Source of the DNA: Vairimorpha necatrix
Taxonomy: Eukaryota
Direction: 5' to 3'
Assembly: GCA_036630325.1 (NCBI GenBank)
Contig: CP142732.1
Span: 620,001-684,000 of the forward strand
DNA length: 64,000 nt
Shown: positions 30,001 to 36,000 of the stretch, one piece after another
Position numbering within the stretch: position 1 is the first letter of the stretch
Layout: every line of letters starts with the position of its first letter
Program-made: the position numbers

Positions 30001-33000
30001 GGAAATGAACAAGAAGTCTTAAGGAATAAAAAAAACAATTTTACAATTTTGATTAAAATTACATTGCAGGGAGAAGCACCATAAAGCGCAGCTTCCAAAC
30101 TTCCTCCTTAAATAATAACACCGCAAGGTTTGAAACGTATTCAAATGTAAGCATTACGATCATTTTTAAAGATTTCTCTATGATCATGATTGTGTTCTAT
30201 ATAACTTCTTAAAAGAATTAAACGTATTTTAACCATACCGTAAACTTTAATATTTTTTTAAAGTAACAATTACAAACCCCACTTACAATATGAACACATA
30301 AAATGTTATATATTCTTATATTTTTGATCCTAAATTATGATAAATAAATACATGGGGGCGATACCGAATCGTGAGTTAACAAGTGTTGGCTGTGGTCAAG
30401 AGGCCAGAAGGTTATTAGAAGAGTTTAAGAGGATTGTTTATGGATTAGTATTGTCTGATTATGATTTTGAGAAAAATGTAAAGAAGGAGATTTTTGATCT
30501 TGGAACTGATGAGTTGAAAGAATTTATGGTTAAGAATATTAAGATTGGAGATCATTGGAAAGTTATGGAAACCAAATTAGAGGAATTGGTTAAAGTACAG
30601 GAGGAAAAGGATATGAGATTACGGATGATTGAGGAGGTCACAAAGATGGTGGCAGAGGAGATTAGAAATATTAGTAGAGAGGAAAGAATATTTGAGAAGA
30701 GAAGAACAATGAGATGTTATAATTGTTCAAGAATGGGACATAAGAGTCAGATGTGTTATTATAGATATAGAAATGTTAAGAATAAAGACGAATGTGAGAG
30801 TATTAAAGAAGAAGGTAGCAGTAGCTGTGGTGAAAGGACTTATAGGAACACATGGGATGCTAAAAGACAAAAGAAACAAGAATGGAAGACAAGAAATAAA
30901 AGATGTTATGATGAGGTAGAAAAGAACGGTCTAACTTTAGAAGACATGAGAAAGAGGTTTAGGAACGTTATAGACAACGAAGAAGAGAAAATAAGATATT
31001 GTAAAATTGAAAAATGCAGAATCAGAACTGAAGAAGGTAAGAAAGTTGTAAGGAAAGGTCAGCAGGTGCCACAAGCGCATAAAGAAGAGCTGAGAAAATA
31101 TATTCAGAGGTTAGAGACAAGGAATGTCATAAGAAGATCGACGTCGGAATGGAGAAATCCGATTAAAGCTTTAATTAAGCCAGATGGAAGTATAAGACTG
31201 GTTAGCAATCTCATGGCATTAAATGATTTAGTGGAGAAAGACCCTTATGAATTAGTGAACATTAGGGATATCATAAGGAACACGCAAGGATCGAAGTTTT
31301 TCAGTGTTATAGGCCTTAAAGAGGCTTTTTATGGAATCGAAATAGAAGAGCAAGACAAGCATAAGGCTGCATTTGAGTATGATAAGATAGTATATGAATG
31401 GAATAGTATGGTCATGGGGTTTAAAAACTCGCCTCAGATCATGCAGAGAATTATGAATAAAATTTTTGAAAAACATTTGGGTGGTAAAATAGAAGTATAC
31501 ATGGACGATATAGTGATTCATGCGAAGACTAGAAAAGAACATGATAAATTATTTGTAGAAGCGATGAAATTGTTAGAACGGAATAATATGCGGATAAATT
31601 CAAAGAAAATTCAGTAAGACCAAAAGGAAGTCAAGTTATTGGGAGTTACATTAAACGGAGATGATATGATTCCGTCTGAAATCAAGAAAAACGAAGCACT
31701 AGAGTTTCCAACGCCGCAGAATGTGTTTGACATCGAAGATTTTTAGGACTGAGTGGATGGTTTCGAGGATTTATTAAGAATTATGCGGAGAAGACATTAT
31801 ATATGACTGAATGTTTGAAAGGTAAATGTAAAGTATTGAATTGGACTGATGACTTAAATAAAGAGTTCGAAAATATGAAGGAAACGTTAAGAAGTATGAG
31901 TAAGTTGAAAATTGTAAACTATGACAAGGAATTTTTATTAAGAACTGACGCGAGCAATATATGAATGGGCGCAGTACTCATCAGAAGAATGATAAAGAAG
32001 AGTGGGTGCCAGTACAATGGGCATCGAAGAAATTCACCCCGACGGAAACTAGATATGGTATAAGTGAAAAGGAAATGTATGCCATATATCGGGGAATAAA
32101 GAAATTTGAGTATGAGTTAAGAGGACGAAAATTTAAAATAGAAACGGATCATAAAGCATTGGCGGAAATAAGAAGAAAGCCGTGTTTTAATAATAATAGA
32201 ATTAATCGATGGATTGAGAAGATCCAAGAATTTGACTTTGAAATAGATAACAGGAAACCAGAACATATGGTCGTGGCGGATGCTTTAAGTAGGATACACG
32301 AGGAGGTTGATCCAAGAAAAGAAATGATAAAAAAAAGAAGTGAGCGTCAAATTGAAGGTAAATGGTTGAAGCACGTCGAGACGATAGACGGTAAAGAATA
32401 CTGGAATTTTGATTCGGGGAGGAAAGCATTGATTCCTAAAATAAAAGAAAGAAATGAGCTTATGAGACGTTATCATGAAGAGCATGGACACAGAGGACTA
32501 GGAAGCATGTATTATGCCATGAAGTTTGATTATTATTGGCCAGGAATAAAAGAAGATATAGGGAAAATGATAAAAAGGTGCGAGGAGTGTCAAATTTACA
32601 ATAGGAAAAAGTCTGGAGGATGTGATTTTGTTGCTACAAGCAGGTATTTAGAAAAAGTAGCGTTAGATTTAATTGATTTTAGAGATAAGGGCAAATATGT
32701 ATTAGTTGCGATAGATTATTATACGAGGATAGCGTGGGGATGTGTATTATACGATAAGAAGAGATCCTCTGTGGCCCAGTTTATTGAGAACTTATGTAGA
32801 AATGGCAGGAGGCCGAAGGAAATAATAACGGATAATGGAAAGGAATTTGATAATGTTGACTTTAAGGATTTGTGTAGAAAATTGGATATTACCCATAATA
32901 GGGCGAGTGTCGAGTCTCATAGAAGCAATGGTGGAGTTGAAAGAGTTATAGGAACGCTTAGAGATCTAATATTGAAAATGAGTAAAGAGACGGCGAGTTT

Positions 33001-36000
33001 TGAAGACATAGTGATGGAAAGTTTTAAAATTTATTATAATAGTTACCATGAAGGTATAAGAAGTACTCCCAATGAAGCGGTAAAAGACAATACGGGAAAA
33101 GTGATGATATTAAATGGACCAGAAGGAGACTACAGTAAAAGATTTGTTAGAAGATATAGAGAGCGGTTTATTGAAGGACAACTAGTAAGGATAGCTAAGA
33201 AAGAAAACATCAAAGGATGTAATAAATATCAAAAGGGAAGGTTTTTAGACGAAGGTATTATAATGGTGATATGCCCTGGGACTCGTATGTTGTGAAGCTA
33301 TCTAATGGGCGATATGTTAAAAAGAGACATTATGACTTGAAAAATCTGCTTGGGGTTAATGGTGATGTAGGAGACTAACCGTCTTGGAGAGGGGATGTTA
33401 TATATTCTTATATTTTAGATCCCCAATTATGAAGAAATAAATACATAAAATATGAAATTAGATTTTTGATAAATGGTTTTAGTTTTTTATGCCTAAATTA
33501 AGCCCATTAAGAACATAAAAATGTGCTGATCGTCTTATAAATCTTTAACCTTCTAAGTTATATGTATATGTATTTAATATTATTTTTATTAATTAATGGG
33601 TGTAGGTACCCGTAAATTCGCCAAAAGTTCAATAATGGTTGTTTCGCCAAAAATTTTGCCCATAAAATTTTTCCTTTTTTCGCCGAAAATCTACCCTTAA
33701 AAAAATGAACGACAACTTTGAAATTTTTACCGGTCAACGTGGAGGACGAAATCTTATCTATGAAGATCAGATATACACTTTAGACTACAATAAGGACAAT
33801 ACTAGGAGATGTAGGTGCAGTAATAGGTCTTGTAGAGGTGCCATTACAATGAATGAATAAAACGAAATCGTTAAAAAAGTTATAAATTCACATGAACCAG
33901 TACCTGAGAAATGCATGTTTAAAAGAACTATCAAAAAAATAAAAGAACAAGTTGCTTTAATTAATGAAAACTCCCTAGAAATAATAAAAAACAACCCCCA
34001 GCATTGTCAACCAGCTTAGATATTACTAAAATGCCTTCCATAGAATATTTAAGAGATACAATCAAACGAACAAGAATTCAAGACTCGGATTTATAACTGG
34101 TTGCATCATAGATATACCCGAAGTCTTGCAAGTAGATTCTAAAAAAAATCGTTTTCTTATGTTTGATAGTGATCTGTAAGATAATGATAGATTTATAATA
34201 TTTTTTTCAGAATTCAAAAAAAGTATGATTGAAAAAATAGACACGTTCGTTGTAGATGGAACGTTTAAATTTTCTCCTCAAGGACTTTACTAAATTGTCG
34301 CCTTTCATGGACATATATTTGGCAAAAGTTTTCCATACATTTATATTTTACTCGAGGGGAAAAGTGAAAGGTCATATTCTAGAGCCTTCGATAAATGTAA
34401 GAAATTAGTTACTATGAATGTTGAGAACTTTGTGACTGATTTTGAGAGAGGATTGGTCAATGCATTACGAATATCTTTCCCCGAAGCAAACTGTAATGGA
34501 TGCTTGTTTCATCTTGGGCAGGCAGCCTATAAAAGAGTCAGGGCAATGGGGGACATAGAAAATTTAAAAATGATTCTAACTATAATCTAGTATTCAAAAA
34601 GATTCTTAGATTAGCTTTTGTGCCAAGACGAGATGTTCCGGTTTTTTATGAAGATATTAAGAAATTTATACAAGATAATTCAATCACAACCACAGCTAAC
34701 TTTCAGTTATACTTTGAAAATAATTGCTTAGTTTCCCATGTAACAAGAGAAGATAATGGTGGGAGAGCTGTCGCCAATATAAATTTTTGGAATGTATTTG
34801 ATAGTTTAAAAAATGAAATTCCTCGGACTTCTAACAATGCAGAAAGATAGAATAAAACCATCAACAAGAGGATGAAGACAAGAAATCCAAATATCGTTCT
34901 TTTTATTTCAAGAATACTCGATTGTGAGGAAAAGATAATATAATCTAAAACGTAAAAAAAAGGATTGTTTAAAGCTAAAAAAACCAAAAAAGCGGAGGAA
35001 AAAATTAGAACAATCGTTAAAAATTATAAACATTATTCTCGTGAAGAGTACAAGAATGCTTTCTGCAACACGTGAATTTCAAATGCGAATAAGTAAATTA
35101 AATAAACCTATTTTTATTATAAATGCTTTTTAAATAACCAATAAATTTTAATTTAAATTATAATAAAGCTTAACAAATCTTTTAATTTTTCTTTATACTA
35201 CCAATTTTTTTTTGTATTTTTTTTGGCGAAAAAACGAGCAAATTTTAATTTTTGGCGAAAACCCGTATATTCGCCTACAGGCGAATTTACGGTTATCGAA
35301 TGGGTGTAATGTGTTCCATTTTTTTTATATTTTATTAAATTGAAACACTTTCTTAAAAATTGTTCAAGATAGATCATAGATTCGTAGAGCTTTTATAACC
35401 TCTATTTCAGAATTTATAAATAATAAAAAATAATTAAAAAGAATTTTAAAATAAACTAGATACATTTTTTATTTCCATTAAACAGCTTAATATAGTGTAT
35501 TGTTTATATTACAGACTTAATTAAAGAAAAAAAATGAAAATATGATGCGGTGTTCGTATACATTAATTTAGAAATAAAATCGCAGAAATTTGAGGTAACA
35601 AAATTATATCTTAGTTTATGTGAAAGTACCAAAACTGTTTTAAGATTACATTTATAATATCCGTTCAAAAAATAGTATACGAAGAACTCATTTAAAAAAT
35701 AATTATGCTAGTACGTTGGTATTAGGCATTTTTAGATTTTCATGAAAAATCACACAGCACACACATATATATGTATATGTGCTTTAAAAAATGGATTATT
35801 ACAAATAAACTTCTTTTTTTTTCTTTAAAATATTATGTCTTGTTCAAAAAAAAAAGCAAGTTAAAGTTAAGAACTTTAAAAGAGGTTTTTAATGTATATA
35901 GTGTCAAGTGACAGATCTCCAGTGGTCCTAAGATTGCCCTGGAGCTCAGAGAATACGATTCTATAAGTATTCTCTTCCTTCTCCCAACTATGTTTATGGA

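Follow-up and report, generated by a model that had tools for sequence, protein, structure and literature searches.

The 64-kb window of the Vairimorpha necatrix genome analysed here (positions 620,001–684,000 of contig CP142732.1, forward strand) most probably contains two dead insertions of a microsporidian retroelement of the Ty3/gypsy lineage, which is compacted to about 3.14 kb and bounded by true long terminal repeats (LTRs) of 49–50 bp. Both copies, located at 759–3898 (copy A) and 30304–33445 (copy B), lie on the plus strand. They were compared by blastn of 30304–33445 against the whole window, together with sequence reading, repeat finding and a pattern scan. The copies are 82.4% identical over 3.14 kb, and their blastn alignment ends exactly at the outer TG and CA, beyond which nothing homologous is found. 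Each copy carries a direct repeat of the TG..CA type at both ends, the four LTRs being 49, 49, 49, and 50 bp long. The pair of copy A differs by one mismatch (48/49 identical), and the pair of copy B by four mismatches and one gap (49 versus 50 bp).

Sequences resembling the priming sites of LTR elements adjoin these repeats. In both copies, the 5' LTR is directly followed by the same sequence, TGGGGGCGATACCGAATCGTGAG; the complete TGG plus 15 nt adjoining the LTR agrees between them as well, the putative tRNA-pairing stretch being TGGGGGCGATACC. A purine run of 9–10 nt adjoins the 3' LTR (GAGGGGGGA in copy A, GGAGAGGGGA in copy B). Moreover, copy B is flanked on both sides by TAAAA, a perfect 5-bp duplication, whereby a 5-mer match at this spacing has a chance of 0.002 (129/60848 window positions). 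A sequence-only reading of the window had described two copies with 49–50-bp repeats adjoined by TGG and a polypurine tract (PPT), a TAAAA duplication at copy B, and a TATA-like run, a CCC motif, an ATG and an AATAAA inside the 49 bp. Sequence reading, repeat search, pattern scan, and blastn agree on the repeats and their neighbours, the duplication is found at the 49-bp boundary, and all four motifs (TATATAT, CCC(C), ATG, and AATAAA) are located within the LTRs, the CCC being mutated in the 5' LTR of copy B.

At 31% G+C, the window is AT-rich DNA, in which short repeats of such composition are frequent, and the terminal repeats might have arisen by chance or through faulty assembly. We give this explanation practically no weight and regard it as refuted: the first 20 nt of the LTR have four matches in the window against 0.14 expected, a number reached by 0/100 shuffles, and these matches are always at element ends. 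An nhmmer profile built from the four LTRs returned these four alone as significant in the window (E 1e-13 to 1e-15), with neither a solo LTR nor a third copy, and the same structure is present in independent data sets.

Short LTRs in further copies and in related families

Both copies are old and broken, and repeats of 228 to at least 300 bp occur in other LTR-like elements of the window; the 49-bp repeats could accordingly be taken for eroded or truncated remnants of ordinary LTRs several hundred base pairs long. However, the two copies end identically despite unrelated flanks, both the PBS (primer-binding site) and the PPT adjoin the repeats, and the duplication of copy B is situated at the repeat boundary. 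Contigs of four public runs, aligned to 30100–33700 at ≥80% likeness, point in the same direction. In X2, 33388 is linked back to 30301 across three intervening letters in a contig of depth 7111, which contains purine tract, one LTR, primer site, and gag uninterrupted and at the length seen in the window. Run X1 contains a similar join in which the middle of the LTR has an 8-letter variant, and loose contig ends show further LTR variants that keep the C-run. Collapse of the assembly graph, tandem copies, or circles may underlie these joins; under each of these, PPT and PBS are separated by a spacer of window length.

Two related families have LTRs of like size. The first, a separate family without protease, was found in the metagenome-assembled genome (MAG) G002, which is contaminated. 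It matches the profile of the clade alignment, that is, the alignment of the clade containing copy B (see below), with E down to 1e-112, and its LTRs are 47 and 46 bp long. Its 5' end is located on contig C80, in the order flank, LTR (TGTTATAGCC...GATCACA), then TGGCAACACCGATC / TGGCAACACC, and its 3' end on contig C451, in the order GAGGGGGGA, the same LTR, flank. The second is a sister element with protease (L082, identical to L144; G001:C261), which possesses an intact 1088-aa frame and an identical pair of 58-bp TG..CA LTRs at 229–286 and 3535–3592. The LTR/PBS border falls within its ATG: over 229–3592, a single frame opens with the last base of the 5' LTR and ends at a stop codon inside the 3' LTR, leaving only about 100 of 3364 bases non-coding. 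In addition, the locus L142 (G001:C340), represented by its 3' end, has 38 nt between the PPT and a CA, a putative LTR that occurs once in that MAG. A purine tract precedes the 3' LTR in G002:C451 and L142 too. In G001, LTR lengths of 75, 176, 268, and at least 139 bp were measured for protease-bearing elements that are less closely related.

The proteins of the clade provide further bounds. Among 46 protein starts, 17 read M-x(3-6)-M-[GA] and 10 read M[GA], and many of the proteins end in ..ETTRLEGGML or ..GEGDVV, which are two frames of one PPT+TGTT stretch. The inner edges of both LTRs are therefore conserved across the clade. Among the first 46 matches, 25 proteins are of Logan source, some of them possibly partial; 18 of these 25 are on contigs extending ≤100 nt beyond frame plus stop, and the other seven exceed it by 127–824 nt. 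So little contig beyond the frame and stop would leave no room for long LTRs.

Taken together, the high-depth run contigs of window length and the 46–47-bp and 58-bp LTRs of the relatives bring the erosion explanation close to refuted, and we consider it highly improbable. Longer LTRs in other family members, named in the sequence-only reading as a sign of erosion, were not encountered. The data support the short LTR as a family trait, in line with that reading.

As a separate observation, the summed contig depth of runs X1 and X2 at the element ends (30221–30462 and 33246–33487) is far above that of the interior, reaching about 9000–11800 at the ends versus 27–2330 inside in X2. This end-heavy depth, which we do not take as copy number, could reflect many truncated or end-only derivatives, or ends that are more conserved.

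Promoter-like layout of the LTR and the start codon at its border

In three of the four LTRs, TATATAT is located at −30 and CCC at −8/−7 of the first ATG (ATG1), and in the fourth the CCC is mutated. Genes of the window share this layout, having TATA at −31 (gene at 7835), −28 (18067), and −28 (42751), and CCC at −8 to −3 (7835, 18067, 42751, and 56571). For Nosema ceranae, PMC2685015 reports a peak of TATA motifs near −27 and C-triplets at −10 to −3. The likeness to the window genes and the agreement with N. ceranae support the earlier suggestion that small LTRs are linked to compact microsporidian promoters, the LTR reproducing in its layout the core promoter of the genes of its own genome.

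The coding frame opens inside the 5' LTR, ATG1 of copy B being at 30337. A second in-frame ATG (30352–30354) spans the border, its A being the final base of the LTR and its TG the first two bases of the adjoining TGG. With its ATG inside the LTR or at the LTR–PBS border, the frame therefore includes the primer-binding site as coding sequence. The PBS begins with TGGGGGC, which we take to be reminiscent of a primer site of the proline-tRNA type. Locus L181, one of the candidates considered, is not an element and was set aside.

A polyprotein without detectable protease

In copy B, the Pfam matches are arranged in the order RVT_1, RT_RNaseH, Integrase_H2C2 (E 3e-15), and rve (E 1e-11), which is the order of Ty3/gypsy elements. 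The frame of copy B is interrupted by an in-frame stop (31615–31617) and by frame changes near 31735, 31965–31990, and 33230–33320, and in copy A at least eight frame changes are accompanied by many stops. Both window copies are dead. The contigs of X1 and X2 depart from copy B at several of its broken sites; other copies are therefore not all broken alike.

The Gag part before the CCHC zinc knuckle is short. An AlphaFold model of the protein P0001, built with the clade alignment (mean predicted local distance difference test score 78.7), predicts a helical region at residues 19–119, i.e., about 100 helical residues, followed by the knuckle (125–139), a disordered stretch (144–200), and then the reverse transcriptase. 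A zf-CCHC match was detected in 15/25 relatives. In a language-model search, the Gag part found Retrotrans_gag/Ty3_capsid clusters at 0.87, which serves as a lead only.

No retropepsin family was matched by Pfam in copy B, nor in any of 25 intact relatives even at E≤1. The clade alignment has no conserved D-[ST]-G column between knuckle and reverse transcriptase, and the P0001 model has no beta domain between these two (residues 144–200). One of the 47 clade rows, P0006, matches the crude pattern D[ST]G[AS]; its precomputed Pfam list is without protease. As judged by these matches and the predicted model, the polyprotein consists of Gag (helical part plus CCHC), reverse transcriptase, RNase H, and integrase, with no detectable protease. 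If this reading holds, a diverged clade with intact polyproteins and no protease would raise the question of how Gag-Pol matures.

Relatives of the element and its possible autonomy

The nearest named relatives of the element are found in Nosema granulosis, Vairimorpha necatrix, V. apis, Enteropsectra breve, and Pancytospora philotis, and a ubiquitin hydrolase encoded in the window has its closest match, at 52% identity, in V. necatrix. By sequence likeness, the window is microsporidian and near Nosema/Vairimorpha. A FastTree tree of 68 rows, with local support values and some warnings on letter make-up, places the RNase H–integrase frame of copy B inside the gypsy tree. Copy B falls into a 47-row group (support 99), for which no protease was found. 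The next branch holds L082 and three proteins of 1041–1106 aa with a protease motif, and elements of G001 with 1150–1300 aa are located further out. The tree fits a stepwise reduction, the direction of which is only inferred because the root rests on three metazoan rows that are not united on a single side of any branch. The element on G002:C43 was rejected as a clade member, being a different gypsy with protease. In a metagenome scan with gypsy-wide motifs, the 80 loci listed, from a larger set that included closer ones, are all 25–35% identical and outside the clade, and scans of viral contigs gave no clade match.

These relatives allow a broader proposal, which we put forward as a tentative one that is somewhat less than probable: a Microsporidia-wide clade of self-sufficient Ty3/gypsy elements of ~3.0–3.2 kb may exist that lack a protease and use partly coding LTRs of 38–58 bp (U3 ~30, R ~15–20, and U5 ~0 nt), the CA|TGG junction being reused as a start codon. 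If true, no shorter working LTRs and no smaller autonomous LTR retroelements would be on record, and the clade would set a new lower bound on the content of an LTR and of the R needed for strand transfer.

Alternatively, the protease-less copies with tiny LTRs may be non-autonomous parasites, mobilised in trans by protease-bearing relatives of the sister group (L082-type). The missing protease agrees with this, and protease-bearing relatives with similar ends are found beside clade members in the same contaminated MAG; L082 itself combines a 58-bp LTR and the same use of ATG and PBS with the motif LLDTGAQ, and another gypsy lineage is present in the window. However, about 40 diverged clade members keep intact 1000-aa frames with reverse transcriptase, RNase H, and integrase, which points to selection on their own enzymes, and the 47 rows of the clade span several microsporidian genera. 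We therefore consider non-autonomy unlikely; dependence on a helper for proteolysis alone is possible, and not required.

A proposed model of the replication cycle and points that weigh against it

For the two insertions regarded as dead members of a compact Ty3/gypsy element, the following model can be drawn. The first ~30 nt of the LTR would constitute U3 and act as a core promoter of host type (TATA at −30, CCC at −8), and transcription would start a few bases before the ATG. The last ~15–20 nt would represent R, with a U5 of about zero length. Translation may begin at the ATG inside the LTR, or at the ATG composed of the final A of the LTR and the TG of the PBS. The PBS would thus be coding, and in many relatives the PPT and the start of the 3' LTR may be coding too. 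The minus strand would be primed by a tRNA and transferred through the short R, the plus strand would be primed at the PPT, and integration would produce a 5-bp duplication. The polyprotein may work uncut, or may be cut by a protease supplied in trans.

Several observations weigh against this reading of the window and its extension to the clade. The target duplication is clean in a single case: a duplication of 4–6 bp is present in one of three complete elements (copy B), the flanks of copy A (TATAA versus TTAAA) match at 3/5 positions, and those of L082 (AATAC versus GTTTG, on a metagenome contig of a repeated element) show no duplication. The start site, R, and the poly(A) site are placed purely by inference from the sequence. 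In particular, AATAAA is downstream of ATG1 in the window copies, and in two relatives, the G002 family and L142, AAATAAA precedes the first ATG; this upstream position makes a role of the motif as poly(A) signal doubtful. No complementary tRNA was found for any primer site in the window or in MAGs G001 and G002: the only tRNA of the window (Met, CAT) does not match the PBS-like site, reverse-complement patterns for the relatives' sites returned in both MAGs only the sites themselves and noise at control level, and the 13 candidate loci examined contain no tRNA. LTR length is bounded rather than measured in most members of the clade. Moreover, the family of the window copies may be extinct, because both copies are broken and none of the database matches of ≥785 aa comes closer to copy B than 67%. 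The protease-less state is also not general to microsporidian gypsy elements, since nearly all Nbr elements of N. bombycis encode a protease, according to a secondary source (PMC2474625).

Comparison with known elements

The element shares with canonical Ty3/gypsy elements (Metaviridae, e.g., Ty3 of S. cerevisiae) the order of reverse transcriptase, RNase H, and integrase, the TG..CA LTRs, a TGG after the 5' LTR as putative primer site, about ten purines before the 3' LTR, in copy B a 5-bp duplication, and a CCHC knuckle in Gag; a single gag-pol frame occurs in some of their members as well. In contrast to them, the whole LTR here has 49–50 nt and contains a start codon, the element is 3.14 kb long, and a protease is undetectable. 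The element is a Ty3/gypsy member by its enzymes and departs in LTR size, coding LTR, and protease. Ty1 of yeast, a copia-type element with an LTR of ~330 bp, resembles it in that the Gag frame starts inside the 5' LTR, whereas here a start codon is built from the LTR/PBS junction. The ICTV profile of the Metaviridae gives a U3 of 200–1200 nt, a U5 of 75–250 nt, non-coding LTRs, and a protease in pol (PMC7879559); against these values, the LTR of 49–50 nt is far below ordinary length, as had been claimed from the sequence.

With known microsporidian gypsy elements, the element has in common the host group, the single polyprotein, and the placement in microsporidia-specific gypsy clades. Nbr1–8 of Nosema bombycis were reportedly described by Xu et al. 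2006. Parisot et al. 2014 (PMC4202319) present Anncaliia algerae and other consensus families, and the A. algerae Consensus_retroA shown there differs in having terminal repeats of ~170 nt by count. No LTR length of a microsporidian element was stated in the literature searched, which excluded Xu et al. 2006 and the tables of Parisot 2014. The priority of a short-LTR description is uncertain.

Common LTR finders use a minimum LTR of 100 bp by default, and finders with this minimum would not call such elements full-length. As a result, the repeat content, insertion dating, and solo-LTR counts of microsporidian genomes may be biased. Among grasses, PMC3281118 reports FRetro129 (SMART), a non-coding element with LTRs of 85 bp, as the smallest LTR retrotransposon, and its relative FRetro64 as a copia-type element with LTRs of 76 and 90 bp; that study lowered the minimum of its LTR finder to 50 bp, default settings having missed elements. 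FRetro129 and FRetro64 share with the present element unusually short TG..CA LTRs and a 5-bp duplication, here seen in copy B. They differ in that the present LTRs are about half as long and belong to a coding element of gypsy type. If the proposed reading is true, the practical minimum of an LTR would be ~30 nt of host core promoter and a repeat of ~15–20 nt, and the minimal needs of strand transfer and of integration ends would become directly testable.

Features of the two copies

The coordinates of the repeats, priming sites, and coding remains are collected in Table 1.

Table 1 Features of copies A and B in the 64-kb window.
Feature	Position	Strand	Remarks
5' LTR, copy A	759..807	+	49 bp; TATATAT at −30, CCCC at −8 of ATG1
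PBS-like site, copy A	808..825	+	18 nt
gag-pol remains, copy A	792..3810	+	heavily degenerate
Polypurine tract, copy A	3841..3849	+	GAGGGGGGA
3' LTR, copy A	3850..3898	+	49 bp
Left target-site duplication, copy B	30299..30303	+	TAAAA; identical to 33446–33450
5' LTR, copy B	30304..30352	+	49 bp, TG..CA; TATATAT at −30 of ATG1; CCC changed to CCT
PBS-like site, copy B	30353..30370	+	18 nt, TGGGGGCGATACCGAATC; in coding sequence; identical in copy A
Single gag-pol frame, copy B	30337..33378	+	degenerate; four frame segments by tblastn with P0001
CCHC zinc knuckle of Gag, copy B	30715..30756	+	CYNCSRMGHKSQMC
Reverse transcriptase, copy B	31177..31743	+	Pfam RVT_1, E 4e-25
RNase H, copy B	31842..32233	+	Pfam RT_RNaseH, E 2e-22; RT_RNaseH_2
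Integrase, copy B	32444..32908	+	H2C2 zinc domain 32444–32605; DDE core 32660–32908
Polypurine tract, copy B	33386..33395	+	GGAGAGGGGA; adjoining the 3' LTR
3' LTR, copy B	33396..33445	+	50 bp
Right target-site duplication, copy B	33446..33450	+	TAAAA

Other features of the window

Several other mobile or repeated sequences are located in the window. The other gypsy-type element (61625–63953) has a Retrotrans_gag frame and a reverse transcriptase–RNase H region, is of a different lineage, and runs out of the window at its end. At 35900–38324, a 689-aa frame is enclosed by direct repeats that are 98% identical, at least 228 bp long, and spaced by 2197; the frame starts inside the left repeat and has only Retrotrans_gag/Ty3_capsid matches; this looks like a gag-only LTR element with LTRs of ordinary size. 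Direct repeats of at least 300 bp (99% identical) are also found at 53692–55737 and 58423–60516, around minus-strand frames of 520–537 aa that start inside the repeat and have no Pfam match.

A Helitron-like gene at 8593–12128 contains Helitron_like_N followed by a PIF1 helicase across three frames. It is followed at 12240–15500 by six tandem units of ~523 bp, each with a promoter-like TATA...TTTTTTACCCCTC. A frame at 16949–17542 has a DDE_Tnp_IS1595 (Merlin-like) transposase domain, and a 624-aa frame at 24509–26383 has a weak match to D5_N (primase-helicase N-terminal; E 2e-6). In addition, two ubiquitin C-terminal hydrolase genes (18067–19167 and 42751–43854), whose proteins are 68% identical, are situated 24.7 kb apart, each with TATAAAT at −28 and with CCC just upstream of its ATG.

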